Shown here: positions 37,892 to 57,942 of the stretch, piece by piece
Layout: the number at the start of each line of letters is the position of its first letter
How positions within the stretch are numbered: the stretch's first letter is position 1
Virus record (IMG/VR): IMGVR_UViG_3300032245_001170
Coordinates: 37,588 to 101,587 of that record
From: a virus
Strand: one strand, 5' to 3'
DNA length: 64,000 nucleotides
The notes under the pieces: generated by a model
Database searches by the model: none
Seen by the model: only the letters and a program-made list of their open reading frames with translations
Told to the model about the DNA's origin: nothing
Position numbers and translations under genes: made by a program

Positions 37892-37908
37892 AAAACCCAA
37901 CACAAACA

Positions 37909-37942
37909 TTTGGCCCCCCGTCGTGAGACGAGGGGCCATTTG
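37909..37942. terminator. Hairpin between the convergent arms
   Basis: TGGCCCC-CCGTCGTGAGACG-AGGGGCCA followed by TTT. Confidence 0.7.
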
Positions 37943-37951
37943 CTTTGTGTC

Positions 37952-38104
37952 TTATTTACAGTCGCAGTTACCGCAGTCGCATTGCTTTTCTTCAGCAGCG
38001 CCAAACGTTGCGGATGTGAACTCATAAAGAGATTCTTCACCCTCTTTAAGTTCTTTGACTATATCGTTAACAGTTTTAAAGGGAAGTACTTTTTCGTAAT
38101 CCAT
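37952..38104 (-). CDS. 50-aa protein with C-terminal CDCGNCDC
   Basis: TAATG overlap with the upstream gene. Confidence 0.55.
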   Translation of the reverse strand: MDYEKVLPFKTVNDIVKELKEGEESLYEFTSATFGAAEEKQCDCGNCDCK

Positions 38105-38397
38105 TATGCATCCACCTTGTAACTTAGTTCCCCGTCAATTTTGAGAGGCTTATCAGTTGTTACATCTTTGACAGTTACAGCCATCTTGACTGACTTACGA
38201 GGTGTGTTAGCCAGAACTACTTCCTTCAGATACCGCTTTGCAGCTGATGGATTAGACCATGCCGAACAATGATCAAGGATGTAATCCTCAGCACCATCAG
38301 TCTTTATGGTTATAGTTAGCAACCAAGCTCCACCTTTTTCTACAAGGGTGTTCTTAGCTAGGTTTGCTTTTAGTGTTTGATTTACTTTTTTAGCCAT
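38104..38397 (-). CDS. Hypothetical protein
   Basis: RBS AGGA. Confidence 0.6.
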   Translation of the reverse strand: MAKKVNQTLKANLAKNTLVEKGGAWLLTITIKTDGAEDYILDHCSAWSNPSAAKRYLKEVVLANTPRKSVKMAVTVKDVTTDKPLKIDGELSYKVDA

Positions 38398-38406
38398 GTA
38401 TTGGTC

Positions 38407-38655
38407 CTAACCTAGTTTGATGTCTTTATCGAAACCTACTTGTTTTAGGTCTCTCAGTATATTTTTTGCGGCTCGCCAGTCCCCAAGTGAATTCCCACCA
38501 AAGAATACTACCTTATGTGTTTGGGGGTTTTCTACACGGATGTGTTGCTTACCTTTTGTAACGGTTACCTGTAGCCCTGCTGTTTCCAAAGCAGATACCA
38601 ATTTGCGGATGTGTTTATCCTTTATGGTTCCGCTAGCAAACTCCATAGCCAACAT
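38407..38655 (-). CDS. HicA-like (dsRBD-fold) protein
   Basis: L..ALE.AG..V....KG.H..V.NP...V......D.R..KNI.RDL...G. Confidence 0.6.
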   Translation of the reverse strand: MLAMEFASGTIKDKHIRKLVSALETAGLQVTVTKGKQHIRVENPQTHKVVFFGGNSLGDWRAAKNILRDLKQVGFDKDIKLG

Positions 38656-38721
38656 GTATTTCTCCCTTCTTTTATGCTATAGACTATACACGTAAACTCT
38701 TAAAGCTCAGAGTTCACGCCT

Positions 38722-38952
38722 TCAGTTGGAGACCTCCGGAGTGCTACCGGAGGCTTCATCATCAATGACTTGAATCTTGACGATTTTGTGAGACTCCCCT
38801 GGACGAGTACACTCGCTCAATGGAATCCACTCACCTTGGTTTCTATCAAATACCCATAGAGACCAGTCGTGGTTGTCTTTTACGTTTGGGTCATCAATAC
38901 GCCAAGGCGCAATCTTAACGTCAAACGTTATTCGTAAGTGATACGGTTTCAT
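38722..38952 (-). CDS. Hypothetical protein
   Basis: RBS GAAGGGG. Confidence 0.55.
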   Translation of the reverse strand: MKPYHLRITFDVKIAPWRIDDPNVKDNHDWSLWVFDRNQGEWIPLSECTRPGESHKIVKIQVIDDEASGSTPEVSN

Positions 38953-39529
38953 TTACGTCCCCTTCTCTAGTTGGGAAATAATCAAAGATATCTTCATCAG
39001 GTTCTAAGTACATTCGTACGTTAGTCCATGATTCCCAGTCTTTGAACTCTACACATTCACCTCCAATATACATTCTGTAACCTGAAAAGTCACTTCCTGA
39101 CTCATCGTAGGCGTGGTGGATTTTTACTTTGGGGAATTGTTTTGCTAGCATGTCAATTGCATACATAGGCGGGGACCATGCACTATCAAACTCCATTTGA
39201 ACATATCGTTCATCGGGAGCAGTGAATGATTGGTATCCCACTGAGGCTGCATTACTATCGTGAATAATGCGGGCATCAACATCCCATTTTGTACCCCAGT
39301 TGTTTACCTGGAACTCATACCAATCTTTTGCCCCATACATACGAGTTAGGCGTTCCGCTTCATCCCCATCTCTGTTTGGCGCAGTTAATTGTTTTAGTTC
39401 TTCGGGAACAGCTATGATCTTTGCTAAAGACAATGAGGTTTTATCCTCACCTTGTACTGTTTCAAGGAGTCTAGATACTTCATCTGTAGGTCCTTTAAGC
39501 AACAATACATTTTGACACCAGTTAGGCAT
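38921..39529 (-). CDS. DUF1281/YubB ferredoxin-like domain protein
   Basis: MPNWC.N, WY....NWGTKWD, FDSAWSPP. Confidence 0.8.
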   Translation of the reverse strand: MPNWCQNVLLLKGPTDEVSRLLETVQGEDKTSLSLAKIIAVPEELKQLTAPNRDGDEAERLTRMYGAKDWYEFQVNNWGTKWDVDARIIHDSNAASVGYQSFTAPDERYVQMEFDSAWSPPMYAIDMLAKQFPKVKIHHAYDESGSDFSGYRMYIGGECVEFKDWESWTNVRMYLEPDEDIFDYFPTREGDVNETVSLTNNV

Positions 39530-39987
39530 CAGCCTGTCTCCTTTACTTTAGTTGTGCGTAGTATGCCGATTGTTTGTGTTGGCCATAGATATGGCAGGTC
39601 ATCTTCTACCTCAAAGAGGTAATGAGTTGGATCTTTACGTTTGAGATTAGACTGATGACTTTTATGGAACTCTTCGTTACCAATCCACCACGGTTCTGTA
39701 AAAGATTCGGGAGGTAGGTCTCTCATTAGTTCTTTAACTTGATCGTGCACATTATCTTTGTATCCTAAGGCAACCCATCTGGCACACATCATTAATGTAT
39801 ACACGGCTAAGCTACCTTCGTGACCACGCCACATAACTGCAGCGGGGTGATTCCTCCAACCTTTAGTTAGACCCAGGTTGGCTCTCAGTATTTGGAGTGC
39901 TTCCACTCTCTGTTTGCCCAGACGTTTCACGTCCAGAGTCCTCGCTACTGCTTGATACGTTGGTAGCGGAAGGAATGTGTTTACCAT
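39529..39987 (-). CDS. Pyrimidine-dimer DNA glycosylase (MSMEG_6728-like)
   Basis: TFLP, LD.KRLGKQRVE.LQI, W.NHPA..MWRG, H.SHQSNL..KDP.HY. Confidence 0.85.
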   Translation of the reverse strand: MVNTFLPLPTYQAVARTLDVKRLGKQRVEALQILRANLGLTKGWRNHPAAVMWRGHEGSLAVYTLMMCARWVALGYKDNVHDQVKELMRDLPPESFTEPWWIGNEEFHKSHQSNLKRKDPTHYLFEVEDDLPYLWPTQTIGILRTTKVKETG

Positions 39988-40459
39988 CTGTTTCTCCAAT
40001 CTTTGTGATTATAAAGTCTGGCTCAGACTTGTAGCAAACTTCCATTACTTTTACGTGTAGTTCTTCTCTCATCTTAGTTAGCATCTTTCCTGGATAACCA
40101 GCATTAGCTGCTTTCATTAGTATGTTATTAAGAGAATAGTTAGGTGCATGCACTGCTGCATAACCCACATGCTTGTAGAACTCTTCCATAGCGTCTACTT
40201 CGTAGGCCATTGCTCCGGCTACTACAATAAACGGAATGTCTTCTCCAAGTTTTGTTTCAGCTGCCATATGACAGAGGAAGTCAATGACTTCTTGTAGGTC
40301 GTAGTATTTAGGCAGGCCTAGCATAAAGTCTCTAACCTGCATATCATTGTTCACTGCGAATACAATCTTGTCAAATACTTCACCCTCTGGCACATCTTTG
40401 CCAATGGACTTACGTATTAGTTCACATGCTTCTTTGCGTGTTACGGTTTCAATTGTCAT
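39863..40459 (-). CDS. DUF4192-like helical protein
   Basis: D.QVRDF.LG, P.YSL..L; 3' end overlaps the next gene. Confidence 0.5.
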   Translation of the reverse strand: MTIETVTRKEACELIRKSIGKDVPEGEVFDKIVFAVNNDMQVRDFMLGLPKYYDLQEVIDFLCHMAAETKLGEDIPFIVVAGAMAYEVDAMEEFYKHVGYAAVHAPNYSLNNILMKAANAGYPGKMLTKMREELHVKVMEVCYKSEPDFIITKIGETDGKHIPSATNVSSSSEDSGRETSGQTESGSTPNTESQPGSN

Positions 40460-40616
40460 CAGAGTCCTCATCTGTTGTAATAGAGAATCCTGTTTCTGTA
40501 CGAGTTACAGTTATCCCAGGGAACTCTGATTCAATTGCATCTTTAGTTTCTTCGAATGTTTGATACTTGTGAGATAACTCTTGTAATCTACTCATATCAG
40601 CTAGCGTCATGCTCAT
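40449..40616 (-). CDS. Small hypothetical protein
   Basis: RBS GAGGAGG; fills the gap between neighbours. Confidence 0.5.
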   Translation of the reverse strand: MSMTLADMSRLQELSHKYQTFEETKDAIESEFPGITVTRTETGFSITTDEDSDDN

Positions 40617-40770
40617 GTGTTTCCTCCTCTAGTCCGAGCATTGGTATTAGGTCTTCCGCATCATGCTTAATTAACAGGGTACGGGTTGCAGCTTTATACT
40701 TTTCGTATATTGCATCTTCTTGTGCTTTCATGGCATTGTTATCCATATAGATTTCTAACTTCTTACTCAT
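40597..40770 (-). CDS. Small hypothetical protein
   Basis: ATGA overlap; 57 aa. Confidence 0.5.
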   Translation of the reverse strand: MSKKLEIYMDNNAMKAQEDAIYEKYKAATRTLLIKHDAEDLIPMLGLEEETHEHDAS

Positions 40771-40967
40771 GATAGAACTCCTAGTTCTGCTTCTAACCCA
40801 TTATCCAAAGCCCATTCCTGAGGTTCAGAGACAGGTTCAATGGTTAAGTCTGAAACATAATCATTAATGGTTATCCCTGACGCATGCAGGACGAACATTT
40901 GTGCATCCTCATGGTCATTGAATGGTCCAATGATTGTTTCAGTCATATTGTCAAATACAACGTACAT
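40767..40967 (-). CDS. Small hypothetical protein
   Basis: RBS AGGAGGT; IIGPF motif. Confidence 0.6.
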   Translation of the reverse strand: MYVVFDNMTETIIGPFNDHEDAQMFVLHASGITINDYVSDLTIEPVSEPQEWALDNGLEAELGVLS

Positions 40968-40976
40968 AATTACCTC

Positions 40977-42902
40977 CTAACGCATTCTCGAACGCTTTTT
41001 GATGGCACTTACTACGACCTGTTTAGCGAATGGAAGCAGGTCTTTAGCATCAGAGATTCTGGCAAATACTTCTGCTTTGTGGCGCAACTGTTCTTCATTG
41101 AGTTGGTTGTGCTCCTCTACATAGTATTTCCACTCTCTATCGTCCATGATTAGAGTCATGGCTGTCAAGATACCTCTGCGATTGATGCGTTCAATTAGAT
41201 CATCGTTTTTGTTTGTGTTGAACACACCATCAGTTACGATAAACAACATCTTATTCTTCTTACGAGAAGCCATAAGTAATTGTTCAGCAGCAAGCAGGGT
41301 TGGATACGGTTCTGTACCGCCACTGCCATAGATAAACTTGTACTCAGTCTTGTGTGCAAGTTCGTTACGGGTATACGCAATCTCGGCAGCATCATCAAAT
41401 GCATAGACTGTGACGGGAGCGTTGATATGTTCTAGTGCACGTTTGATAGTCCAGCAAGCAACAGATGCTTTCTGGTCATTGCGTCCACTAGACATGGAGC
41501 CAGAACGATCGACAAGGATAACTGCTTCAATATCACAGCCATCATCACCTTCATCCCAGCGGTCAAAGGCAGCATCAATCTCGCAACCTCTAATTACACG
41601 TTGCACATTGAGTCGACCAGTTGGTGTCTCTCTTTGCCACGTAGGTTCTGAGTCATCACGAAGTCTTTGTAATTCCCTAGCGAACTTACGATAGGAGATT
41701 ATTGCTTCTTGAGGAACTGCAGTGTTATGGAACTTGCCTCGTTTAGTTATGTCCTCATGCTTGCCATCTCCACCAACAATTACTCGTTGTTTGGTTCTGA
41801 CATCTGCTTGGACATCCTTGCGAGCCAATACATCATCGATTGCATTATTGAGCATGTCATTGATGCTATCGGGTAGTCCACCAAGACTAGGAGCATGTCC
41901 TTCACCGGCTGTTGCAGGAGTTTGGGTATCTACGTTTTGTTCACGTATACCCAAAGCTTGCTCAACAGAGGTTGGTGCGCTTCGTTGTGTCGGTGTCCCA
42001 TTACTTGTATTATCTGGCTTATTACTTCCGTCAGAGGATTCGGTTTGTGTTGGAGACGAGTTAGATGGTTGCGGTTGCTGTTTAGGTTTAGGTACGTAAG
42101 TAGATTCTTTTGTACCCATTCCTTTAGCACGTTCAGCATCTTTCTCCTGAGCCTTGCCTGGTTCGGGACGACCTTTAGATGTTGGTGAGCGTTCACCACA
42201 TTTGTTAGGGCCACCGTCCATGTTAGGAAGCATTCCCATAGGGATGCATACCTCGTTGTAGAATCGTTCTACTAGTTCTTTTGCTTTCTCGTATCCTTGT
42301 GGGAACGGAAGCAAACGATACTGATCAACGATGTCAATGATTGCTGGGATTAGCTCAGGGAAGGCAAACTCATCACGGAATGCTTGTCTAATCTCAACAG
42401 GTAGATAACGACGACCACGAATGCAGACATAGTTACCACTGATATCTTCTGATGCACCCAACCAACGAGCCACTGTGGCTGTTAGATATGGTGCAATAGA
42501 TGGATACCTACCTACTAGTAATGTTTCGATACGTTGATCCTCCAAGATATTAAACGCTTGGAAGTAATTGTTATCGATAATCCACTTGACTAGTTCTGTG
42601 CCTTTGCGAGGCGTATACAGGTGGTGGGCCAACTCGTGATAGTTGAGGCCGTTTACCTGTGTCAATGTTTCCAAGTCCATATCTTGAATCTCATTGAGAT
42701 TGATATAGATTGATGCACCATCAGACCACGCAGGTGCGGGGCCATCAGGAACAACATTGACTATGACTGGGTCGCCAGTTAGAACACGGTCCGCCTGTTC
42801 GTACACGCGGCATAATGCATTCAACCGAACTGAACGCTCTTGCGTTTCCTCGGTTCTGGCTTCTCCGTAATAACTATTGTCATTGAGTTCTTCAATTAAC
42901 AT
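40977..42902 (-). CDS. VWA-domain protein (CobT-like; N-terminal HExxH)
   Basis: HELAH, NILED.RIE, MIDAS DRSGS..GGT..TDG. Confidence 0.88.
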   Translation of the reverse strand: MLIEELNDNSYYGEARTEETQERSVRLNALCRVYEQADRVLTGDPVIVNVVPDGPAPAWSDGASIYINLNEIQDMDLETLTQVNGLNYHELAHHLYTPRKGTELVKWIIDNNYFQAFNILEDQRIETLLVGRYPSIAPYLTATVARWLGASEDISGNYVCIRGRRYLPVEIRQAFRDEFAFPELIPAIIDIVDQYRLLPFPQGYEKAKELVERFYNEVCIPMGMLPNMDGGPNKCGERSPTSKGRPEPGKAQEKDAERAKGMGTKESTYVPKPKQQPQPSNSSPTQTESSDGSNKPDNTSNGTPTQRSAPTSVEQALGIREQNVDTQTPATAGEGHAPSLGGLPDSINDMLNNAIDDVLARKDVQADVRTKQRVIVGGDGKHEDITKRGKFHNTAVPQEAIISYRKFARELQRLRDDSEPTWQRETPTGRLNVQRVIRGCEIDAAFDRWDEGDDGCDIEAVILVDRSGSMSSGRNDQKASVACWTIKRALEHINAPVTVYAFDDAAEIAYTRNELAHKTEYKFIYGSGGTEPYPTLLAAEQLLMASRKKNKMLFIVTDGVFNTNKNDDLIERINRRGILTAMTLIMDDREWKYYVEEHNQLNEEQLRHKAEVFARISDAKDLLPFAKQVVVSAIKKRSRMR

Positions 42903-42904
42903 AG

Positions 42905-44332
42905 TTATGCCAATTTAGATGCGTATTGACCAGCCCACGCTTTGAGTTGTTCTTCAGGAGATAGTCCTTCAGGCTCTTGCTCAACAACAATTGGGATTTC
43001 AATACCGAAATCAGTCTTGATGTTGTGTTCGTGTGTCTGGAATACCAATCTAACGCTTGCTGCTTCGTCAGGGCTGAAGTGAGCAATGAAGTTTTCCACT
43101 GCGAACTCATAGCCTAGAGCGTCAACAAAGTTAACGAACTCTTGAAGCATGTTAGTTGAGATTGGTGTTTCGTATTGACCTTTGTTAGCTTCAATACGTA
43201 GTTGTTTAGCAACGACCAACAATGCCTTAGATGAAACCAACTTAGCCTCGACCTTGTCATCATAATCCCAAGGGATTTGGATATCAAAGCGATTACGGAA
43301 GGCAAAGTTGAGCGGTGTTGTACCAATGTAATCTGGATTCATAGTAGCGAAGATAGTGAGGTCTTTGTGAGCCTCAATAGTTTCACCATGATGATCCAGC
43401 AATGTAATGGCACGACGACCGTCTAATAGTCCGTAAAGAACTGTGTAGATCTTAGGGCTGATGAAGTTAACCTCGTCGAGCAATAAGACACCACCATTAC
43501 GAACTACATCAGTGACAGGGCCATCAATCCAAGCAAATGAACCATTACCATCTGATACGAACTTACCAGTCATTTGACTAGGCTCCATAGAAGCATTGCC
43601 TGAGACTGTAGCCATACGTAAACCGCGTTCAGCAGCCCACGCTTCTACAGATGTGGTTTTACCTGGACCTGTTGGGCCATAGATTAGAACGTTGATGTTT
43701 TTGCTACGAGCATGATCAAAGATTTCAAAGTCCTCACGGGACCAGATATCTCTATGCACATAGCGTTTTGCTAGTTCAATCCGTGGCACTGATGCCAATG
43801 ATGCTTTAATCATTGGACCGCTAGATTCTGCAACTCTAATTGGAGTTGGTTCAATCGTTGCGGGTGCGGGCATTGTTTGTGTTGGCGCTGACACTAACGG
43901 AACAGGAGTTCCCGGCATACGGCGGTTGTCAATTACATGAGACTCAAGAGAATCATCACCAATACTTACCGCTTCGTAGATTTCGCATAAGCGTTCTACA
44001 AAGGACATAGTATCTGTGCTGATTGCTGCTTTAGTATGCGCTTGACATGCCTTGGTGCCGAGGACTGGGGAATAACCTTTGTCCGTCATAGCACGTTCAT
44101 CTGCTGATGTAACATATACAGCAACAGGTGTGCGTGTGAGCTTTTCGTCAGTACCTATCTGTCCTGTAATACTATCTAGGTCAGTTTCCTCCCACTTATT
44201 GTGAGGACCCTTTGTCCCATCAGTATCACGTGAATAGATTCGTACGTTACCATCATGTGGAGTGATAAGAACCTGGCGGCGCTTAGCCCCCATGGTTGGT
44301 TCGTACGACTCAGTGAATACAGCGATATCCAT
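42905..44332 (-). CDS. MoxR-family AAA+ ATPase (CobS/CbbQ-like)
   Basis: GPTGPGKT, W.DGP, LLDEVN, ATMNP.Y.GT..LN.AF.NRF. Confidence 0.9.
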   Translation of the reverse strand: MDIAVFTESYEPTMGAKRRQVLITPHDGNVRIYSRDTDGTKGPHNKWEETDLDSITGQIGTDEKLTRTPVAVYVTSADERAMTDKGYSPVLGTKACQAHTKAAISTDTMSFVERLCEIYEAVSIGDDSLESHVIDNRRMPGTPVPLVSAPTQTMPAPATIEPTPIRVAESSGPMIKASLASVPRIELAKRYVHRDIWSREDFEIFDHARSKNINVLIYGPTGPGKTTSVEAWAAERGLRMATVSGNASMEPSQMTGKFVSDGNGSFAWIDGPVTDVVRNGGVLLLDEVNFISPKIYTVLYGLLDGRRAITLLDHHGETIEAHKDLTIFATMNPDYIGTTPLNFAFRNRFDIQIPWDYDDKVEAKLVSSKALLVVAKQLRIEANKGQYETPISTNMLQEFVNFVDALGYEFAVENFIAHFSPDEAASVRLVFQTHEHNIKTDFGIEIPIVVEQEPEGLSPEEQLKAWAGQYASKLA

Positions 44333-44407
44333 ATCTTTACCCCTTCTTTGGTAATGGAATCGTTTGTCATATTGCTATGACATTCCCTAACGATTTGTTA
44401 AGGAAAC

Positions 44408-44650
44408 TTAGTCTTCGTCGTCCTCTAGGACACGGTTTTCAATGACAGCGGCCATTTCGTAGGCAACTTGCTTGTCACGAGGCCATTTAGTAATCAGGTC
44501 AAATAAGATGCCGTGATTCTCTGCCTTCTCCATAATTAAATTCATTTGCTTACTAATGTAATCGTAAAACTCTTGCTTTTCAACAGGCGATAAGGAATCA
44601 AAACTAGGGGTGTATTCGTCTTCACTATCATCTTCATCAAAGTTAAACAT
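44408..44650 (-). CDS. Acidic hypothetical protein
   Basis: RBS AGAAGGGA. Confidence 0.65.
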   Translation of the reverse strand: MFNFDEDDSEDEYTPSFDSLSPVEKQEFYDYISKQMNLIMEKAENHGILFDLITKWPRDKQVAYEMAAVIENRVLEDDED

Positions 44651-44678
44651 TTTATTTCCCTTCTGTTAGGTTTAGGTT

Positions 44679-44990
44679 CCCAGAGCAGGTCTTTAAGACC
44701 TGCCCTGGGGTATCTACAAGGTGTACGCACGAAGGACAAGAGAGGCTGGAAACTTAGCTACTACGGGCTTGCATCAAGTGAGTTTAGGTACCGCGGAAGT
44801 GGTTGGTTGGACTAACTGTGTCACGCTCAACCATCTTCCTAACGGCCCACTGTTATTGCTTTCCGACTTGGGTTGGATCAAGTATCTTGCCGAGTGCTTC
44901 TAGTCTTGTAAACGTTGACACACCTCAAGGAGGGGACGCTGGATTGCCAGATTGTGGTCGCAGGCCCGGTCAAGAGGATATGCCAAATTT
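44679..44990 (-). ncRNA. Putative structured intergenic RNA A
   Basis: Nested helices 44919-25/44719-25, 44904-09/44736-41, 44828-39/44795-805, plus a 14-bp hairpin at 44679-709. Confidence 0.5.
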
Positions 44991-45006
44991 GTTTGTGTTG
45001 AAACGA

Positions 45007-45468
45007 TTACGCTTCTGCTAACCATGAACTCTCTGCTTGTGGCAGTTGGCTAATTAGAAGTGTTTGATAGAAAGGTCCAGGCATTTGTTTGGTCATGGCT
45101 TGTGCTACTGACCAGATAAATGAAGATGCTTCCTCAGGCTTGTTACGTGCGATTGCTTCTACTACAACGTTGGGATGGCCCCAAGAGTATGCAACAGCAG
45201 TCACATACTCAGTCATTGTTCGTATAGATACTTCATCTGCTGCACCACGTAAACCAGTGCATAGCGCTTTGAGTGCTGTGTCTTGGTCAACTGCATCTCG
45301 CAATATGTAACCAATAGTTACATCTCTGAAGTGAGTGTTGGTGCTTAGATCTTTTAAGTTAGCTGGAATGTAACCTTGCAAGATTTGAGTAGACGCTTGT
45401 AAAGGCGTTGTTACTAAACCCTGAGTGGGAACAGACTCTCCAGTGTAATTAACTGTCAAGTTTGACAT
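45007..45468 (-). CDS. Helical hypothetical protein (possible DUF4192-like paralog)
   Basis: 'FRDV.IG' resembles 'VRDF.LG' of 39863-40459. Confidence 0.55.
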   Translation of the reverse strand: MSNLTVNYTGESVPTQGLVTTPLQASTQILQGYIPANLKDLSTNTHFRDVTIGYILRDAVDQDTALKALCTGLRGAADEVSIRTMTEYVTAVAYSWGHPNVVVEAIARNKPEEASSFIWSVAQAMTKQMPGPFYQTLLISQLPQAESSWLAEA

Positions 45469-46156
45469 ATGCTGCGATCCTTCTCTCTAGTTCGGTTGGT
45501 GGTTGCTTTACTATGTTGCCATCTTTTAACCTGAGTGGAGAACCATCCCAAGTAATAGATATAAGCTTGTTCCCATAGTCTTGTTTGCCTGTGCCACTAC
45601 AGCTACGACAATCTCTTCCTTTAGGAACATTGTGACTATCTGCAAATCCATGTGAGCATTTACCATAGTGCCAGTAAGAAGACCGACCTTGGGTCGGTGT
45701 CCATTCTGGATGGTCTGCACATGGAAAGTGATTACTGCAATATGGCGGGGAACACCAATCGTCTCTCTTACCAGAACCTTTACAACCTCTACACTTTTGC
45801 ACCTTTGATGGGGTGCGTAAAGCATCTTGAGTTGTTATGTAAACGGTTCCTTCTTTTTGGAATACGCCCTGTAATTTACCAAAGTGTTTGATGTTGTATC
45901 TAACACCTTGAGAGCGTAATGGATTCCATGTGCCACCCCACCGTGTTGCTGTTGATTGAGGGCATTGGATTGTTAATGTGCCATCAGGATGAAATAGAAC
46001 AGGGTTGAATCCATACCATTTATCTACGATGGCAATGTCTTTGCCATGATTTTGTAGGCGAAGCCCACGCATATACATTGGTCGGTCCCATTTCTTACGA
46101 CCGCCTGCTAGATATACTTTGGCTTCATCATAATTTGATATCCACCACGCACCCAT
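45449..46156 (-). CDS. Protein with DnaJ-type CxxCxGxG motifs
   Basis: CRGCKGSG, CRSCSGTG. Confidence 0.65.
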   Translation of the reverse strand: MGAWWISNYDEAKVYLAGGRKKWDRPMYMRGLRLQNHGKDIAIVDKWYGFNPVLFHPDGTLTIQCPQSTATRWGGTWNPLRSQGVRYNIKHFGKLQGVFQKEGTVYITTQDALRTPSKVQKCRGCKGSGKRDDWCSPPYCSNHFPCADHPEWTPTQGRSSYWHYGKCSHGFADSHNVPKGRDCRSCSGTGKQDYGNKLISITWDGSPLRLKDGNIVKQPPTELERRIAAYVKLDS

Positions 46157-46446: not shown

Positions 46447-46482
46447 GTCGGCTCCCTTCTGTATGTTGGGCGGTTTGTTTGT

Positions 46483-46810
46483 GTTGGAGCAGAGGCACCA
46501 CCTCCCACGGTAATCCTGACTCTAGCCTCGGCACACGTGGGTTTCCCCGAGGTGTGCTGTCATAAGCAAACGCATTTAGTGTTTAGTGTTTTGAATGGCT
46601 GTATCGTCGGGAGTAGTTTCCCCATGGGATACCCAACGAGCCAGAGCACTTACTGTAGTACTGTGCATGACCAATCATTATGCCTCTGCCCAACGTGCCT
46701 GCATAGACGGCGAAATCTATACAGGCTCCATCACATTTGTATACCGCATGATGGTGCGGTCTTACGAAGGGCTAAGACTTCATAGCGTTGCAGTATGCCC
46801 TAGCCGTGCA
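46483..46810 (-). ncRNA. Putative structured intergenic RNA B
   Basis: Closing stem 46681-94/46483-97; internal GAAA-capped hairpins; further hairpins at 46697-778. Confidence 0.55.
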
Positions 46811-47249: not shown

Positions 47250-47395
47250 TGAAGGCTCCTTTCGGGGGTGTGTGGGTTTGTGTCGGTTACGGACATTGGC
47301 ATGTCCCTTGTGCACACTCATAGTTCATGAGTGCTTCTGACTCTGTGTAGCCATTGAGTATCTCAATAGCAATGAACAGATCTTTCTTTAGTTCT

Positions 47396-49431: not shown

Positions 49432-49455
49432 ACTTCGCGGGGAAGGATTGGTGTA

Positions 49456-49596: not shown

Positions 49597-49626
49597 AACG
49601 ATCCTTTCATACTGATTGTTGGAAAT

Positions 49627-49884: not shown

Positions 49885-50376
49885 AACTAGCCTTTCTAAT
49901 AGAAACACGGGATTATCTTTACGCAAGCACATTGCAACCCGTGTCTATCCTTGTGTAAATACTCTCAGATAGAGAGTGAGAGATACATAGGCTCAGGACT
50001 GTAATAGTCTCTGCGTTTAAGTCGTAAACACCTATGTATCTTCCACAACCTACCTGATAACAGCCATACACCATAGTCGTAGACCTGGTGTGTCTCCCAA
50101 TGCTCATAGTTAGATAATTAGCAGTAGCCAATTCTCTATGATGAGAGATGTATCACATTGTGAGATGAGAAAGCCCTAGCCGAACTTTGAAGGGGACGGC
50201 TAGGGCTTCTCGATAGACAGAAGACACGACAGCAGCAGACTAGACTCGGGGGAGAAAGCAGGTTCCCTATGGCTACGAACCAATAGGGCTTTATCCACTC
50301 CCCATCTACGCCCATAGATACTATGGACATAGAAAGGAAGTGGGCGGGGGTTTCCCCCCACCCACTAACTATCTAA

Positions 50377-50901: not shown

Positions 50902-51066
50902 TTTCTTGCTTTCTACTGCTGGGAGACAGGGCTACCCAATACAGCGTGCCCCTACTAGGAGTTGCACCTAGTAGAGGCTAGCGAGAAAGTCTGCTGCTGT
51001 TATTACCTTGAACCTTTGGTGTCTGCCACCCTTGCCCCTCTATCTTAGTTTTCCGTTTTCTCCCAA

Positions 51067-51130
51067 TTTGTCCGTTTTGTCCGATTTGTCCGTTTTGACC
51101 CCCTATGCCTTAATTGTCCGTTTTGTCCGA
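51067..51130. repeat. Tandem 9-bp TTTGTCCG(T/A) repeats at the strand-switch junction
   Basis: Units at 51067, 51076, 51085, 51094 (degenerate), 51113, 51122. Confidence 0.85.
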
Positions 51131-51239
51131 GTTCGGCCAGGTGAGACAGATTGTTGAGGTTATTTACATACAGGCAGTGGCCTAAAAATCGGGGGGATTT
51201 GGGGGATTCTAGGCAGTAGCCGGGGAGTAGACTACCTAC

Positions 51240-51740
51240 ATGCCTAGAGGTTTCGATAATCCTAATTACTACCGTAGACGAGAGCAATCTGAATCTCAGG
51301 CGGGAGATGTTAAGCTCAATGTCATAGAGGCCGCTAAGGACAAGCTAGCGCCTGTAGACATGGTTCCAGTGAGCACGCCAGAGGGACGGGAAGCTCGAGC
51401 TTCGTCTATGAGTCCTACTAATCCATGTGGCCCTGGGTACGAGTACATTACAGCGCCTACATCTGGTCAGACAGACGCTTTAGGCCGTCCGCGCCCTAGA
51501 GCCTATTACGCCTGCTACTCAATAGATAGAGAGATGGAAGTACTAGTCATAGGCATGAGAGATGGCTCTATGATCCAGTACGATGGAGTAGACCCCGTTC
51601 TATGGGATGTATTGAAGAATTCAGACTCTACCGGCGCTTTTATCAATCTATACCTAGATGGAGCACCTTGGAGTAAGACAGACTACGCAAACCTCCCCCG
51701 CAAAAGGCCTGATGAGTTTCAGTATGGGATTGGTCGATAG
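51240..51740 (+). CDS. KTSC-domain protein
   Basis: L.I..RDG...QY.GV...W..L..S.S.G.FIN; TAGACT -10 six nt before ATG (leaderless). Confidence 0.7.
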   Translation: MPRGFDNPNYYRRREQSESQAGDVKLNVIEAAKDKLAPVDMVPVSTPEGREARASSMSPTNPCGPGYEYITAPTSGQTDALGRPRPRAYYACYSIDREMEVLVIGMRDGSMIQYDGVDPVLWDVLKNSDSTGAFINLYLDGAPWSKTDYANLPRKRPDEFQYGIGR

Positions 51741-51775
51741 TACGCTAGTATTGCTGTATCTACTGAAGGGCTCCC

Positions 51776-52342
51776 ATGACAACGCTAGCTGCAATTCAAG
51801 GTGATGGCTGGTCCGTTATTGGTTGCGACTCTCGTGCCTCTGACGAAGATGGTCGCTATATGGAGCTTGCCACATCTAAGATAATTAATAATAACGGTGT
51901 ACTGATAGCTGTCTCCGGCGCTTCTAGAGGTGGAAACATTACTCAATTTGGATGGAAACCTCCAAAGCCAGGTGCAACTATTGATTTAGATACATTTATG
52001 ACTAAGAAGTTTATTCCGTCAATGCGTAAAGCTTTCCAGGATGCAGGCTTTGAAGGTAAAGAAGATGGCGATGCTGCATGGCACGACTCTAACTTGCTTG
52101 TATCTGTTAGAGGAATCATCTACCCGATCTTTAATGACTACTCTTGGGATAGAGAAGCCCGCCGCGTTTACTATGCTGGCAGTGGTGGAGACTTAGCACT
52201 AGGTGCTCTTGAGGCTATGAACTACGACCGTATAACTACACCCGAGGCCGCCGAAAAGGTTTTGAAGAAGGCGATTGCAATTGCTATCAAGCACGACATA
52301 TATTCCGGTGGAGAGATCCATACATACATACAAGAGGCCTAA
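51776..52342 (+). CDS. Ntn-hydrolase protease, HslV/proteasome beta-like
   Basis: N-terminal MTT, DSR, K33-equivalent, GSGG..A.GAL, DIYSGG. Confidence 0.85.
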   Translation: MTTLAAIQGDGWSVIGCDSRASDEDGRYMELATSKIINNNGVLIAVSGASRGGNITQFGWKPPKPGATIDLDTFMTKKFIPSMRKAFQDAGFEGKEDGDAAWHDSNLLVSVRGIIYPIFNDYSWDREARRVYYAGSGGDLALGALEAMNYDRITTPEAAEKVLKKAIAIAIKHDIYSGGEIHTYIQEA

Positions 52343-52400
52343 TTTCTGTCATCATTTGTGAGTTCGACCGAACAACCACATTGATCAGTGAGGAAAAATA

Positions 52401-53138
52401 ATGGCAACAAATAACAATGGAAACTTGTTGGATTCATCCGGCAACGTTTTTGTAGATTTCGTTTGGGGAAACCTCTCCAAGCAACCAAATGATGAGCGTG
52501 CAGACGGTACCCCAACAATTACAACAACCGTTGGTGGAGACCAGAACGTTTCATGGACTTATTACAGCAAGATCAACAGTGCACGTCTTAACCCAGCACT
52601 AGGTGATCATTCCGATATTGAATCGGACTGGAGCGGTTTTCCAGCATTCACAGCTAACGATCCAGGCGAGAAGCTTGCAGGCGTTGCATACATCGCAGTA
52701 CCAAGCGTTGTTGGACTTACAACAGCTCTTGCTCTTGATGCTCTTAAGGATTCAGGTTACGAAGCAGCTAACATTACAACAGCTTCAGCTGCAACAAACG
52801 CAGCATCAACAATCACAGCAGTATCACGTACAGGTACAACTGCAACAATCACCTCAACAGGTGCAGGTGCAAAGTACCCAGTTGGTACAAAGATTACAGT
52901 TGCAAGCCTAGTATCACCAGATACAGCTCTCAACGGTACTTGGACAGTTACTGCAGCAAACACAGACACAATCTCATTTACAACAACTACATCTGGAGCC
53001 CTATCAACAACAGGTCTATCTGTTGCTGGTCTAACAGGCGTAGCAGGAACAATCAAGACACAGAGCACAGCAGCTGGTGCGAACTCAGTTCTAACAACAG
53101 CTACTATCACTGTGACACCTTACGCAACAGCTTCATAA
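52401..53138 (+). CDS. Thr/Ala-rich structural protein with a split PASTA-like domain
   Basis: VPSVVGLT...A..AL...G ... GTI..QS..AG. Confidence 0.6.
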   Translation: MATNNNGNLLDSSGNVFVDFVWGNLSKQPNDERADGTPTITTTVGGDQNVSWTYYSKINSARLNPALGDHSDIESDWSGFPAFTANDPGEKLAGVAYIAVPSVVGLTTALALDALKDSGYEAANITTASAATNAASTITAVSRTGTTATITSTGAGAKYPVGTKITVASLVSPDTALNGTWTVTAANTDTISFTTTTSGALSTTGLSVAGLTGVAGTIKTQSTAAGANSVLTTATITVTPYATAS

Positions 53139-53159
53139 TAGATTTACAACTAAATAGCG

Positions 53160-53187
53160 CAAAGGCCGGGAGAAATCCCGGCCTTTG
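53160..53187 (+). terminator. Intrinsic terminator
   Basis: AAAGGCCGGGAGAAATCCCGGCCTTT. Confidence 0.75.
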
Positions 53188-53224
53188 GCATTTATACAGC
53201 AAACAATAGTGGGAGTATTTAGAC

Positions 53225-53494
53225 ATGGCCAAAGAGAAGAAGCAGTTCAAGGTTAAAAAGCACAAGCACCACGCAACCGTGGGTCGCTTGGGCGGTGGCT
53301 ATGCTGTAGGCGGTATTCCTTGGTTCCAACTTTATTACGGTGGATACTGGGGCGGAACCGCACCCGGAAATGATAATAGCCCAAATGAAACCGCACAAAA
53401 CGGTTTTGGACAGGAGTCTGGTGATGGAGCAAGTAATGTATCCGGATCAGGAGGAGCTTCAGCTTCTGACGGTGGGGGTTCGGGAGCAATGTGA
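53225..53494 (+). CDS. Gly-rich hypothetical protein
   Basis: Basic N-terminus, GS-rich tail. Confidence 0.5.
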   Translation: MAKEKKQFKVKKHKHHATVGRLGGGYAVGGIPWFQLYYGGYWGGTAPGNDNSPNETAQNGFGQESGDGASNVSGSGGASASDGGGSGAM

Positions 53495-53627
53495 TAAGTG
53501 CTCTGCTAGAGCACAATTTGGCGCTTTTTTCCCTACAGGCGTCCTAACCTTCTGCGCCCACCACTACAACGAACAAGCAGATGCGCTTACAAAAACAGGC
53601 GCAGTAGTTAAAATGATATTAATCTAA
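53424..53627 (+). CDS. Small CxxC...CxHH zinc-binding protein
   Basis: CDKC.A.A......L.FCAHH; start uncertain. Confidence 0.55.
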   Translation: MEQVMYPDQEELQLLTVGVREQCDKCSARAQFGAFFPTGVLTFCAHHYNEQADALTKTGAVVKMILI

Positions 53628-53646
53628 CAAGGAACGGATCCTTATT

Positions 53647-54312
53647 ATGCCAGCACCACAGAACAACCAAGGTTTTGTACAGCCATCAAGTGGCGGAACC
53701 GGTAATTGGCTCGGAAAATTATTCGGAGGCATCGGAGATAAGTACCGCGCCCAGAATATGGCCCAACTTCAATTAAACTTACATACGCTTAAGGGCGATG
53801 TTGATACTGAAAATTTTAAAACAAGAACTGCATACTCAACTGGTTCTAAAGATTGGCTTGATGAACAGGTGTTTGAACGTGGCGGTCGAGCTATTGATCG
53901 TGGCATTGAAAAAGGCCCTGACCTAAATAAAAATAATATCGCAGGCTTTGATAGAAACTACATGCCTCAAATGCAAAGAACAGGTCAGAGAGTTAAAGAA
54001 AATAAAGCTGCTGACACTACAGATGCAACAATAAATACTCCACCTAATGATAATACGCCACCAAATAATACTCCACCTGTAGATCGTGGTGGAAATCCTA
54101 CACGTAAAGCTAAGGCACGCAACGCAACTCTTAAAGATACTATGGCAGCCTTATCTGCTGGAAAAATTGATAAGGAACAGGCAGCAGATATGAGCCCAAC
54201 CTATGCTCGTAATTTAGGTAAGAAGACAGCTTCAGAAAGTATAACTAATCCAGAGTCTAACGCAACTCCTGCAAAAGTTCGTAAACCTCGTACACCAAAA
54301 GCAGGTGCATAA
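53647..54312 (+). CDS. Hypothetical protein (possible internal virion protein)
   Basis: Low complexity; NNTPP repeats. Confidence 0.55.
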   Translation: MPAPQNNQGFVQPSSGGTGNWLGKLFGGIGDKYRAQNMAQLQLNLHTLKGDVDTENFKTRTAYSTGSKDWLDEQVFERGGRAIDRGIEKGPDLNKNNIAGFDRNYMPQMQRTGQRVKENKAADTTDATINTPPNDNTPPNNTPPVDRGGNPTRKAKARNATLKDTMAALSAGKIDKEQAADMSPTYARNLGKKTASESITNPESNATPAKVRKPRTPKAGA

Positions 54313-56603
54313 TGCCTAAAAAGAAAAAACCAAATATTGGAAAGATTGTTGCTACCGGCAAGAAGATTAAGACAGAGCGTCTTGAAAAAAGAAAAGCTGG
54401 TATTGAAGCTGCTCAAGCAGCTACCGTAGAAGAATTAAAGACTACTCCCAGAAAACCTGCTGCAAAGAAGGCAGCACCATCAGCTCCTAAAAAGCCTGCT
54501 AAAAAAGCACCGGCCCCAGGAAGTAGAGTAAATGAATTTGATCAACTTAAGTCTACTCTTAAAGCTGATGCACCAGAAAAAGTACAAGAACCTGGTCGTC
54601 CCGGAGCAGCTGAATTTTCTAGTGAAGGTGCACGTCAAGCAAATATGAGAGCGGCTGCAGAAAGAGCAGCAAATCCAGAAGTTCGTTATGATCTTAGTGA
54701 AATTCCTTCTGGATCAAAACCAGAAGATATAAAAGCAGTAAGCGCTGCTAAAGAAGATCCTAAGTTAACTCCAAAGCCAACTATGGAAGCTTTGCCTACC
54801 GAAGCTGAGCTAGCACTTCAACGTAGACGCAATGCTCCATTGGCTAGGCCACAAAAGTCTGGTATTTTAACTGGTGGTACTCCAGAGCGTTATACACCTA
54901 CTACAACCGATCCTTCAAACGACAAAACTCGTTTAAGTCGTGGTATGGGTATTGCAGGAGAAGAAAAGGGAATTATTTCTCATGCAATCAACCTATTGAA
55001 CCGAGACAATGAAGTTCTTTGGCGTAGTGGAAAGTTATTTGAAAAACCAAAGATTGCAACTAGCTATGAGGATGTCCGAGACACTCATCAACATCGTTTA
55101 GCAAAAGTTATGGATACTTTTAAAGTTTCAGAAGATGCTTTAAAGGCACACGCTGCTGCAGAAAAAGGCGGCTCACGCAGAGCTTACGAAGATACTATTG
55201 AGGAACTACATTCAGCTACTCAAGAACACAATGACTTCTACGGTAAAAAAGTTCAGCTAATGCCTGGACCAAACGATTCTTGGCAAGATCCATCTACTGG
55301 ACAAACACACCCAGTAGCTGCAAATCATCCAAATATGCCAGCAGCGTTTATGAGAACAAAGCAACCTATTACACGAACAACCATGACACCAGAAGGTCGT
55401 AAATTTAAGCGAGGTCACGAAGGTTGGGACTCTGTGACTGTTGCTGGTGGAACAAAAGTTTGGCGTCAACAGACTGCTCCTGAAGGAATGGACCTAGTAG
55501 ATCATCTTCGTACTCAAATATTGGCAAATCATGCTGCAGGCGCAGCTGGACGATCTAGAAAAGTTCGTGAAGCTACTACAGTAATTGATTCCCTCAAGGG
55601 TGGAAATAAAGTAATTGGTCTTAGACAACGTGGACGTGCAGAGCCTGGTACAGGAATTCCTGCTGTGTCTACACAACCTACGGCAAGTACTGAGCCAAGA
55701 AAACGTAACGCCGTAACTGTTAAGTATGACCCAGGTCAAAACTCAGTTACAGAAGCTTTAATTGCTCCTAAGGATGCCCCTACCGGTTTGCCTACAGGTG
55801 ATAAAACAAAGCCAAAACCAGTCAAGGCACGTTCAGGTAGAGTTCTTGTTAGAAAGGGAACTACTGGTTTACCTATTAGCTCTATGAACTTGAAAACAAG
55901 AGAGCCTGAAGTATCCGTAGATGGTGGAGTTGTACCTGCAAAGAATTTACTTCGACCTTTGGTAGATAAGAATGCAATGCTTCCTGACAAGGTTCCAGGT
56001 GCAGAAGTTGTTCCAACAGCTAAGCCTGTTAAAACAACTAAAGAAGAAAAAGCTTTAGCTGCTGCTAAAATGAAAGAGAAAGGCGAAAAGGCACGTGGTG
56101 TTGGTCCTTTACAGAAGAACACCGTAAACGTTGCTGGAAAGCCATCTCTACTTGCAAACCCTCAAATGGCTCTGCCTGGGTTTGAAAACGTAGAGAATCT
56201 TCGTGTTGGTGGAAGAGCTCAACGACTTCTAGCAGAGGCTCATGGAACTACTCCTAGAGAAACTACCGCTATGGAAGACGTACGCACTATTAAGAACGCA
56301 GGGTTGATTGTTAAGCCTACTCCAAGCACTAGCCGTGAGGTTGCTGTTAGAGAAGGTTCTCCAAGTCAAAAGAACAGGGCTAGAAAAGCCGCTATTCAAA
56401 CTCGTCAAACCAGTGGTCCAATGGAGCAACCTATGCTTCCAGGAAAAGAACTACGTTCAGCTGCTTTTGCTCAAGGCGGCACCACTGAAAAGATCAGTGA
56501 GAAGACTCGCGTTCTTCAAGGAGAAGCAAGAAAACCTTCTAGGTCTTCTAACCCAATCTACGTTGCAGCAAACAAAATTCTTGAAGAGAATAAAGATAAG
56601 TAA
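54312..56603 (+). CDS. Large basic, disordered protein
   Basis: 763 aa, K/P/A/R-rich, no Cys. Confidence 0.65.
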   Translation: MPKKKKPNIGKIVATGKKIKTERLEKRKAGIEAAQAATVEELKTTPRKPAAKKAAPSAPKKPAKKAPAPGSRVNEFDQLKSTLKADAPEKVQEPGRPGAAEFSSEGARQANMRAAAERAANPEVRYDLSEIPSGSKPEDIKAVSAAKEDPKLTPKPTMEALPTEAELALQRRRNAPLARPQKSGILTGGTPERYTPTTTDPSNDKTRLSRGMGIAGEEKGIISHAINLLNRDNEVLWRSGKLFEKPKIATSYEDVRDTHQHRLAKVMDTFKVSEDALKAHAAAEKGGSRRAYEDTIEELHSATQEHNDFYGKKVQLMPGPNDSWQDPSTGQTHPVAANHPNMPAAFMRTKQPITRTTMTPEGRKFKRGHEGWDSVTVAGGTKVWRQQTAPEGMDLVDHLRTQILANHAAGAAGRSRKVREATTVIDSLKGGNKVIGLRQRGRAEPGTGIPAVSTQPTASTEPRKRNAVTVKYDPGQNSVTEALIAPKDAPTGLPTGDKTKPKPVKARSGRVLVRKGTTGLPISSMNLKTREPEVSVDGGVVPAKNLLRPLVDKNAMLPDKVPGAEVVPTAKPVKTTKEEKALAAAKMKEKGEKARGVGPLQKNTVNVAGKPSLLANPQMALPGFENVENLRVGGRAQRLLAEAHGTTPRETTAMEDVRTIKNAGLIVKPTPSTSREVAVREGSPSQKNRARKAAIQTRQTSGPMEQPMLPGKELRSAAFAQGGTTEKISEKTRVLQGEARKPSRSSNPIYVAANKILEENKDK

Positions 56604-56606
56604 GCC

Positions 56607-56789
56607 ATGGCTAGAGTGGCTAGCTTTTCTCCAGAACCAGATAGACCTAATCGGTATAAATCCTTGCGCCATAACGCAAGAGAGGCTGCCGAGTATCTAA
56701 CTGGCTTACCTTACAAACAACCTAAGGCTCCTAAGTTTGATGTCTATAAGAAGCCTGGACGAGGCGCTAGCGGGGAGCACCAGAACTAA
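56607..56789 (+). CDS. Hypothetical protein
   Basis: Packed in operon. Confidence 0.5.
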   Translation: MARVASFSPEPDRPNRYKSLRHNAREAAEYLTGLPYKQPKAPKFDVYKKPGRGASGEHQN

Positions 56790-57079
56790 TGGGACGTAAT
56801 AAGAAAGACCTGCACTACGGCTCTAGAGACGGCCGTGGAGGCGTTGTACGCATGTCTGTGAGCGACCGTACCTCTAAGGCTGCTCGTCCCTGGAATGATC
56901 CTCAGGTTGTTAATGCCTCATCTAGTTATGGGGTTAAGTTTAATAGCTATAAAGAAGTTCATAAGTACGAGAATACCCTTGAATCTCAAGGATCACTTGA
57001 ATCCCACGAAAGATTTACCTGTGGGCCATGTGGTAAATTAAACGCCTCATGTGCGTGCAAGGGAGATAGTAATGGCTGA
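56789..57079 (+). CDS. Hypothetical protein with a C-terminal Cys cluster
   Basis: CGPCG...CAC. Confidence 0.55.
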   Translation: MGRNKKDLHYGSRDGRGGVVRMSVSDRTSKAARPWNDPQVVNASSSYGVKFNSYKEVHKYENTLESQGSLESHERFTCGPCGKLNASCACKGDSNG

Positions 57080-57362
57080 AGAAAAAAAGTTTGGTCCCTA
57101 CAAAGGTTCCAAAGCGAATGGAGGTCGCCCTATCTACGTTTACAAGAAAAAAGTAAACGGTAAGTGGGTTACAACATCGAAAAATAAGGCTCGTGCCGAT
57201 TACGAATCTAAAAACGGAAAACTACCTAGAGGAACGGATGTTGATCATAAAGACAACAACCACAGCAATGACTCTAAGGGAAATCTAAGAGCATTGAAGC
57301 ATGGTAAGAACACCGCAAAAGAGAATAAACGAAGAGCTGGTAAAAAAGAGAATCAGAAGTAA
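57072..57362 (+). CDS. HNH endonuclease-like protein
   Basis: DVDHKDNN..ND..GNL....H..N. Confidence 0.75.
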   Translation: MAEEKKFGPYKGSKANGGRPIYVYKKKVNGKWVTTSKNKARADYESKNGKLPRGTDVDHKDNNHSNDSKGNLRALKHGKNTAKENKRRAGKKENQK

Positions 57363-57395
57363 ATAAAAAAGGCCCGGTCTCCCGGGCCTTTTCTA
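57363..57395. terminator. Bidirectional terminator
   Basis: AAAAAAGGCCCGGTCTCCCGGGCCTTTT. Confidence 0.85.
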
Positions 57396-57399
57396 TTAT

Positions 57400-57942
57400 T
57401 CAATTTTTAGGGAAATCATCAAACCATTTGGTTATACCCGGCTCTGATGGGTCTCCGTCATAGGCCCCAGAGCCGTACCCCCAAGAACTAAAATCCGTCC
57501 CTCTACCAGTCATGTAATACGCCGCTTGGGCGTTAGTAACTGGGTCAAGCAGTTCCGCATCTTTTTTAATACCGAACTTCTCTCTACGGATGGCTCCTAG
57601 ATCTCCTATCATGTTGATCTGGAATAACCCGTAAGAGTTGTCTCCTGTAGCTGAAGTCTTGTTATGGGAAGTTGGGTGACCCCGGGACTCCTTCATAACT
57701 ACTGACCAAGCTACCTTTAGGCTGTTGCCTTCAAAACCAACCAGGGCCAAGAGGTCTTTCAACTCCTTGGAGGTCAGTTCTGTTGCCCCACGGTATTTGT
57801 CGAGTGGATCTACGACCTCTACTATTGTTTGTGTTGGGGTGTCTTTCTTGTTTTCTTCGGCTGCCATTGCTACGGGGATACCGCAGACTAATACTAAATA
57901 GGCCACCATAACTGCGATTTGCGATTTTGCATCTTTATGCAC
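57400..57942 (-). CDS. Secreted lysozyme-like/SLT transglycosylase
   Basis: Signal-like N-terminus; KES, YGLFQIN, L.DP..NA.AA, SSW. Confidence 0.82.
   Translation of the reverse strand: MHKDAKSQIAVMVAYLVLVCGIPVAMAAEENKKDTPTQTIVEVVDPLDKYRGATELTSKELKDLLALVGFEGNSLKVAWSVVMKESRGHPTSHNKTSATGDNSYGLFQINMIGDLGAIRREKFGIKKDAELLDPVTNAQAAYYMTGRGTDFSSWGYGSGAYDGDPSEPGITKWFDDFPKN

Follow-up and report, generated by a model that had tools for sequence, protein, structure and literature searches.

A short strand-oriented sequence word is maintained by nucleotide-level selection in the early arms of freshwater phages

We analyzed a 64,000-nt stretch of viral DNA in which a short, oriented word recurs. This window covers one strand of positions 37588-101587 of the IMG/VR record IMGVR_UViG_3300032245_001170, which is 101,587 bp long and rated 100% complete by CheckV. 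The full word spans 12-13 letters (YCAACACAAACAA), and its exact 10-mer core, CAACACAAAC, occurs nine times in the window. The genome belongs to a contractile-tailed phage that encodes a major head protein, a tail sheath, collagen-like fibres and a large terminase. Its other genes include those for DnaB, a DnaC-like loader, a DnaG-type primase, Pol I, RecA and a class II ribonucleotide reductase (RNR). The phage also encodes two WhiB proteins and a SpoVS-like protein and has a GC content of 43%. A megablast search against a phage database returned no relative, and searches for tRNAs and Rfam families found none within the window.

The hosts are probably acI-type Actinobacteria (Nanopelagicales), as suggested by the WhiB genes, the GC content, the freshwater runs and a terminase relative found on a contig of a ‘Candidatus Nanopelagicaceae’ metagenome-assembled genome (MAG). 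From its gene content, the phage appears to be lytic and reliant on the host RNA polymerase. Tyrosine integrase (PF00589), serine recombinase (PF00239) and ParB (PF02195) profiles have no match in this CheckV-complete genome, and no NusG paralog or NGN domain was found in the phage. Sigma-70 region 2 (PF04542) likewise has no match in the phage genome, though remote or novel factors could still exist. The T7-type RNA polymerase profile (PF00940) also has no match, a blank that shows little because the same profile is silent in all 14 control genomes.

Two convergent arms meet at a bidirectional terminator hairpin, recognized from the sequence at 37914..37943. One copy of the word (37897..37909, core 37898, plus strand) lies at the end of the replication/nucleotide-metabolism arm, between the last stop codon and this hairpin. 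The copies of the opposing early arm are all on the minus strand. At 39570..39582 (core 39572), the word lies in the C-terminal tail of a pyrimidine-dimer glycosylase open reading frame (ORF), 43 nt before the next start codon. The VWA (CobT-like) gene (40977-42902, minus) contains two copies, one in its conserved VWA domain (TCAACACAAACAA, 41209..41221, core 41211) and one in a hypervariable Pro/Ser/Thr linker (42041..42053, core 42043). A further copy (43873..43885, core 43875) lies in the hypervariable linker of a MoxR/CobS-like AAA+ gene (42905-44332, minus). At 44989..45001 (core 44991), the word follows straight after the stop codon of a 153-aa gene, at the 5' edge of a ~340-nt non-coding stretch. 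The copy at 46475..46487 (core 46477) lies ~30 nt before the start of a 96-aa gene, at the 3' edge of a ~330-nt non-coding stretch, and its syntenic counterpart is retained in relatives. The variant CCGACACAAAC (47276..47286, minus) is the furthest-upstream copy in the early arm.

Other copies lie elsewhere in the window. One (57825..57837, core 57827, minus) is on the sense strand of an SLT lysozyme-like gene, and another (ACAACACAAAC, 36479..36489, minus) is antisense within the class II RNR gene (35684-37714, plus). A one-mismatch variant, CCAACACAAAT, was identified by sequence match at 6847..6857 on the plus strand. An initial annotation of the window had listed eight exact copies and the variants at 47276 and 6847. 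All of its coordinates hold, and all eight copies are present; the ninth, at 36479, had been missed. The annotation had also described the word as always lying on the sense strand. This is true of the early arms and slightly overstated beyond them, as 8 of the 9 copies in the window and 13 of the 16 in the whole genome are co-oriented with the local gene. Its observation that the word puts the peptide PTQT into four proteins is correct (the glycosylase tail, the VWA linker, the MoxR linker and, as TPTQT, the SLT protein), as is that of NTNK in a different frame (F-N-T-N-K in the VWA domain).

The word is strongly over-represented. The nine copies in the window compare with 0.21 expected, and none of 100 dinucleotide-preserving shuffles reached nine. 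Across the whole genome, the core is the most over-represented 10-mer (16 exact copies versus 0.32 expected under an order-3 Markov model). The initial annotation had called for a comparison with codon-preserving shuffles, and enrichment persists there: across all ORFs we counted eight sense copies versus 0.77 expected, a number reached in none of 500 shuffles. Antisense copies are also above expectation (five counted, of which three are real, versus 0.27 expected; none of 500 shuffles reached five, and the shuffle maximum was three). The antisense copies sit inside RNR and tail genes, with those beyond the RNR copy at genome positions 21234 and 31405. The RNR copy is kept in relatives of 88-94% identity (for example, at 17034 in L012 and 17810 in L033).

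A second family of over-represented 9-11-mers (GGACCTACAGG, CCTGTAGGGCC and similar) occurs in the tail fibre genes (genome positions 2781-16348). This family arises from collagen-like Gly-X-Y repeats and is no regulatory word.

We compared the window with 46 related loci from ~100 kb IMG/VR contigs, retrieved by their MoxR-like protein (55-94% identical). The word-bearing family appears to be one of lytic ~100 kb myophages of freshwater Actinobacteria. The exact 10-mer is present in 45 of the 46 loci, with 2-12 copies per early arm. Within the early arms, every copy lies on the arm's sense strand, and opposite-strand copies are confined to the arm ends or to the sequence past them. In nearly all loci that extend to the arm end, including those from few-copy genomes, an opposite-strand copy is found 3-6 nt before a GC-rich convergent-terminator hairpin. 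With tolerated variants counted, genomes carry 4-21 copies; high-copy genomes have 16-21, and low-copy genomes with just 3-5 exist. The VWA linker carries a copy in most relatives. At least three contigs (C5, C18 and C77 of L079/G010) of a ‘Candidatus Saccharimonadales’ MAG contain seven motif copies and a 92% identical terminase; these are probably phage DNA binned in the wrong genome.

A small, previously unlisted ORF of ~51 aa with a C-terminal CDCGNCDCK motif closes the early arm of the window (37953-38108, minus). Its stop codon is closely followed by a degenerate mirror version of the word (GACACAAAGC), across the terminator hairpin.

The logo of 303 unique contexts is asymmetric and reads Y-CAACACAAAC-A-(A), that is, YCAACACAAACA(A), with an A conserved at 92% at the word's 3' edge. 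Elsewhere there is no conserved flank except a C-rich, T-poor tract ~10 nt downstream (+14..+23), which is alike in coding, leader and other sites (C 0.37-0.45, T 0.07-0.12). The spectrum of one-mismatch variants on the arm's sense strand is sharp. It is dominated by C>T at position -1 (36 cases), C>T at position 5 (12 cases) and A>C at position +10 (9 cases), and every other single substitution occurs in 0-2 cases. The CCGAC form is the principal one in one relative (L049). The antisense strand of the arms contains no variants.

Several observations indicate that selection acts on the nucleic acid rather than the peptide, as the initial annotation had argued. First, when 39 distinct MoxR genes are aligned by codon, the word falls in an indel-rich hypervariable linker, where 35-37 of the 39 sequences read CCA ACA CAA ACA. 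The sole synonymous variant, at positions where the annotation had asked for conservation in relatives, is one CAG among 37 Gln codons. By comparison, a conserved Pro 12 columns away uses CCA (15), CCG (13) and CCT (6). Second, word-bearing sequences of the VWA domain read F-N-T-N while others read F-D-(A/S)-(E/D), which implies that the word overrides the protein sequence. Third, the junction between VWA and the downstream p66 gene exists in two states. In one, a 13-nt insert separates the stop codon from the Shine-Dalgarno sequence (SD), giving TAA-C-CAACACAAAC-AAAGGAG-N5-ATG; in the other, the stop codon is fused to the SD, and neither the word nor a decayed remnant of it is present. The window's clade is without the junction copy and carries the FNTN copy 230 nt upstream in VWA. 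As these two copies alternate, the position appears flexible while presence is selected. The word is thus, almost certainly, a cis-acting, strand-specific signal under nucleotide-level purifying selection. That it is kept on the sense strand even while dictating amino acids marks it as a real regulatory signal.

Copies are regularly spaced. Measured over 213 gaps in 28 arms, the spacing averages 1243 bp (5-95% range 721-1850 bp). The coefficient of variation per arm averages 0.26, compared with 0.84 for random placement (5th percentile 0.49). Long genes hold internal linker copies even when the gene junctions have copies of their own (L040 and L041). No copy occurs in the first ~1 kb of the early arms (the first ~4 kb in this genome), and the divergent promoter region of this genome contains none. 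Outside the early arm, high-copy genomes have 5-7 copies, most of them in sense orientation and many close to gene junctions; of five sense copies in the late region, three sit 19-46 nt ahead of the next start.

Placement relative to genes is also nonrandom. About 33% of unique sites fall in the space that separates a stop codon from an SD plus start codon. Another ~30% lie within open frames, and the remainder are at gene ends or beside hairpins or non-coding stretches. Thirty percent of unique sites are 10-60 nt upstream of a predicted start, versus 8% of random positions. The SD is never contained within the word. A hairpin-word-SD layout follows the capsid gene in G000 and G004 and is also found in an unrelated phage; in other layouts, the word is followed by a hairpin and SD or by a small structured RNA. 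The word region itself is unstructured (mean minimum free energy -2.3 versus -4.9 kcal/mol), and strong hairpins start directly after the word at ~15% of sites versus 2.6% of background, mostly in the terminator-adjacent class.

A tRNA-like minihelix lies directly after one motif copy in L054 (14370-14416) and also in L049 (near 3290). In L054, it has a GCGCTG/CAGCGC acceptor-type stem and a TAGG-TTCGATT-CCTA T-arm and is followed by a hairpin and the next gene. Neither ARAGORN nor Rfam calls this minihelix.

One lineage points to a reader of the word. The relative G006 (locus L046) contains no CAACACAAAC. It instead has ten co-oriented copies of an altered form, nine CCRAC(G/A)TAAAC and one CCGACGCAAAC, which include the syntenic MoxR-linker, VWA-linker and terminator-adjacent sites. 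Its closest relative, G008, carries the standard word. Near-concerted change of this kind implies a sequence-specific, co-evolving reader. A comparison of G006 and G008 proteins found none with outlying divergence (G006 is 70% complete). We rejected an 86-aa basic protein that seemed to be missing from G006, since its gene is mobile and the genome is just 70% complete.

A candidate partner is p80, an acidic 80-aa protein encoded upstream of MoxR (44408..44650, minus), whose presence tracks high motif copy number. The p80 gene is missing in exactly the two clades that independently dropped to 2-5 copies, with L053 as an exception; as two events, this is a lead and no proof. The SpoVS-family protein (21691-21975, plus; PF04232, E 1e-27) is a second candidate reader. 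It is the family's best conserved small protein, 77-93% identical among seven genomes, and an Alba-like fold that binds nucleic acid has been predicted for SpoVS (PMC2732212). Pfam and PHROGs scans of ~70 proteins found no helix-turn-helix domain, repressor or reader; a direct comparison with gp71, the stoperator-binding repressor of L5, was not made. PDB sequence searches with six proteins and a protein atlas search with two gave no hint of a reader, and the large ORFs without assignment gave none of a polymerase or sigma factor.

Two further proteins of the phage are conserved. A 193-aa protein (31552-32133, plus) with an invariant CxxC...C...H...C...CxxC pattern is 63-81% identical in all seven genomes compared; it has no family match, and its AlphaFold model is unusable (pLDDT 40.6). 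A conserved 235-aa early protein (45449-46156, minus) contains two CxxCxGxG motifs of the DnaJ zinc-finger type and is therefore no obvious regulator. Together with the 153-aa protein, p80, the MoxR/CobS-like AAA+ protein, the VWA/CobT-like protein and the acidic p66, it forms a conserved set. This set is a chaperone-like module, the stable core of an otherwise hyperplastic early arm.

The word also extends beyond the family. An 18-mer scan of IMG/VR (word plus SD) identified two copies each in L110, L114 and L123, which have no protein similarity to the family; L110 and L114 carry a different terminase. The reader may thus be shared beyond the family. In L123, a 10 kb viral contig with 37% GC, tandem, DnaA-box-like ATCCACA repeats (4380-4420) lie just upstream of a series of TTGACA-N17-TATnnT promoters, and the word stands immediately after two of these consensus promoters, overlapping the start site.

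No single known model fits all of these observations. The functions guessed in the initial annotation (a stoperator-like operator, an antitermination or RNA-binding site, and a processing mark) all stay in play with none singled out, and we rate a phage-specific promoter, an option absent from it, as likely at least as much as any of them. Our ranking places a start signal first, an RNA-level site second and a roadblock third.

We tentatively favor a reading in which the word serves as a phage-class-specific signal for starting transcription of the delayed-early arm and of a few units elsewhere. A phage or host factor would redirect the host RNA polymerase by reading the roughly bubble-sized, A/C-only non-template strand. 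Initiation would take place at the conserved A or AA on the word's 3' edge, and the transcript would carry at its 5' end an SD leader, a stabilizing hairpin or a small structured RNA. Its first ten bases, C-rich and U-poor, would form a stable initial RNA-DNA hybrid. Copies within long genes would serve as internal promoters like those of the T7 class II region. The suggestion draws on the enrichment at gene starts, the hairpin-word-SD, word-hairpin and word-structured-RNA layouts, the purine at the 3' edge and the one-sided C-rich flank. It draws further on the class-specific distribution, the sharp variant spectrum, the lineage variant and the word-free first ~1 kb of the arm, and on the flexible placement near a gene boundary seen in the junction and VWA copies.

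Parallels are found in the T7 class II/III and T4 late (TATAAATA) promoter sets, which are sharp, co-oriented single boxes of one temporal class, often just upstream of an SD and sometimes within coding sequence. In related phages, such promoter boxes vary together with their reader. The differences are that we detected no phage polymerase or sigma factor, that the spacing here is far more regular, and that the universal copy faces a terminator.

These differences are among several points that weigh against a start signal. Neither a T7-type RNA polymerase nor sigma-70 region 2 was detectable in the phage, and we found no conserved immediate-early gene able to supply the factor. A word without T cannot be a sigma-A -10 element, and a sigma-A promoter just upstream of the word was rejected, as such promoters are not enriched there in the family. 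The ~1.2 kb regularity and the linker copies kept beside junction copies are not needs of a promoter. Finally, the most conserved copy points straight into the terminator hairpin, where a start would yield just a ~45-nt RNA.

A possible, if doubtful, alternative is that the word acts at the level of the sense transcript, where it would offer a sequence-specific RNA-binding protein or endoribonuclease an accessible platform of single-stranded A/C. The reader could be host-encoded (such as the KH domains of NusA, in a nut/boxC-like arrangement) or phage-encoded. Its role would be to process the polycistronic early RNA beside protective hairpins or to load or modulate an elongation or termination factor. 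The absolute sense lock in the early arms is consistent with such a site, as are its unstructured surroundings and the fact that any context serves, be it coding, leader or beside structured RNA. The word also borders hairpins and structured RNAs, and where a hairpin and then the motif follow the capsid gene, cleavage would give the capsid mRNA a 3' hairpin. The presence of the word plus SD in L110, L114 and L123 is a hint of a common reader, perhaps one supplied by the host. Cleavage inside the MoxR and VWA frames, however, would wreck these messages, yet those copies are among the best conserved. Antisense copies are likewise above chance, and a run of 10-11 invariant positions is more than most RNA-binding domains would be expected to read.

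There is precedent for phages that copy the antitermination boxes of rrn operons. The host family offers a partial match: a conserved rrn leader sequence, GAGAACUCAACAAC, has AACNCAA(-)CAA in common with the word, although this similarity is weak, with a chance probability of ~0.1. Like nut (boxA-boxC) and ops sites, the word is a 9-12-nt sense-strand element that would be read during transcription. Those sites occur once or twice near a promoter, whereas the word occurs 7-12 times per arm, every 1.2 kb, with the first copy at least 1 kb from the arm start, and in a phage where no NusG paralog was found. The boxC of the M. tuberculosis rrn operon is a specific site for the NusA KH domains, and its AUA, critical for NusA binding (PMC2724277), is missing from the U-free word.

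A conserved leader box (CCUUGAGAACUCAACAACGUG) lies ~220 nt upstream of 16S in three Nanopelagicaceae-family genomes (L106-L108) and partly resembles the phage word. This box is likely an actinobacterial boxC-type NusA site.

RNA-RNA pairing with a G/U anti-motif was rejected. General G-U wobble tolerance, which pairing would predict, is not seen: only three substitutions are tolerated, and the sole conserved complement is the terminator-adjacent copy. We also found no complement of the word within three mismatches in 16S or its leader.

Rather unlikely, though with the closest described analogue, is a stoperator-like polar roadblock. In such a system, a phage protein bound to the asymmetric double-stranded site would halt RNA polymerase when it moves along the word from 5' to 3'. 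The early arm would thereby be silenced or attenuated, the convergent terminator reinforced and stray antisense transcription stopped. L5-type sites are asymmetric 13-mers in many copies, with transcription-linked orientation, a location in short intergenic spaces and a lineage-specific consensus (PMC9283540). The word shares with these Cluster A stoperators its asymmetry, its length of ~13 nt, a dozen or more copies, the linked orientation, a frequent though not general location in short intergenic spaces, a lineage consensus and a probable actinobacterial host (PMC9283540). Even spacing and copies forced into linkers fit an array that stops any transcript within ~1.8 kb. The universal pre-terminator copy and the antisense RNR and tail copies are sensible as read-through blocks, and in L123 the word's overlap with a promoter start site is an operator position.

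Several differences nevertheless set the word apart, and membership of the L5 type, to which the initial annotation had compared it, is not upheld. The phages here look strictly lytic; as no integrase, serine recombinase or ParB was found, they would have no lysogeny to maintain, and no repressor was identified among the ~70 scanned proteins. Copies cluster in one arm with a ~1.2 kb period, about one-third of them run through coding sequence, and the arm's own promoter region is without an operator copy. A roadblock also gives no obvious role to the one-sided C-rich, T-poor flank or the hairpin-motif-SD layout. Sense copies in late structural operons would hinder late expression, and the word occurs in phages with a different terminase.

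The Cluster K mycobacteriophage start-associated sequence (SAS), reportedly described by Pope and colleagues in 2011, is said to be a ~13-nt conserved word beside the ribosome-binding sites of a subset of genes. The likeness lies in a conserved actinophage word of ~13 nt next to ribosome-binding sites. SAS includes the ribosome-binding site and is confined to gene starts, whereas the word described here abuts the SD in about one-third of copies, with the rest coding or hairpin-adjacent.

Very improbable is a DNA-metabolic mark, such as a strand-specific nick site (T5-like), a primase or priming site, or a Chi/KOPS/uptake-type host word, given that copies concentrate in one ~10-13 kb arm rather than genome-wide and that host genomes show no enrichment (48 matches versus ~41 for a reversed control, the chance level, in 101 genomes of the inferred host family, Nanopelagicaceae), which rules out a Chi/KOPS/DUS-type word. 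The phage primase is also DnaG-type, and DnaG-type primases read trinucleotides; genomes with only 3-5 copies exist as well. In favor of such a mark are the Okazaki-fragment-sized ~1.2 kb spacing, a strand bias that could track replication direction as well as transcription, and a complementary strand of G and T only, like some primase sites (for example, NrS-1 5'-TTTGGTTA-3'; PMC8718748).

A literature search on the word returned primers only and no description of it. The word resembles known oriented phage cis-elements and differs from them in its periodicity, its placement in coding linkers and its lytic genome. Although unlikely as a whole, a further view is that it is a periodic ‘punctuation’, a 12-13-nt A/C-only sense-strand element ~1.2 kb apart along a long early transcription unit. 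A conserved reader, conceivably one of the host's elongation factors or a small phage-encoded adaptor (the acidic p80, for instance), might repeatedly reset the state of the polymerase. That state could be one of processivity, pausing, termination or coupling, and lineages sharing hosts would then share the word.

The presumed hosts, acI/Nanopelagicales, are among the most abundant freshwater bacteria, and gene regulation in their phages is scarcely described. The word is a useful metagenome marker for this phage family and its early arm. Selection that dictates codons and amino acids, a ~1.2 kb period and concerted change in one lineage together provide a precise, testable handle on the early programme. 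As a promoter, the word would imply a polymerase-redirecting factor that has escaped detection. As a roadblock, it would carry the stoperator principle over to lytic phages. Should a host factor read it on RNA or within the transcription bubble, the word would represent a new kind of elongation signal.

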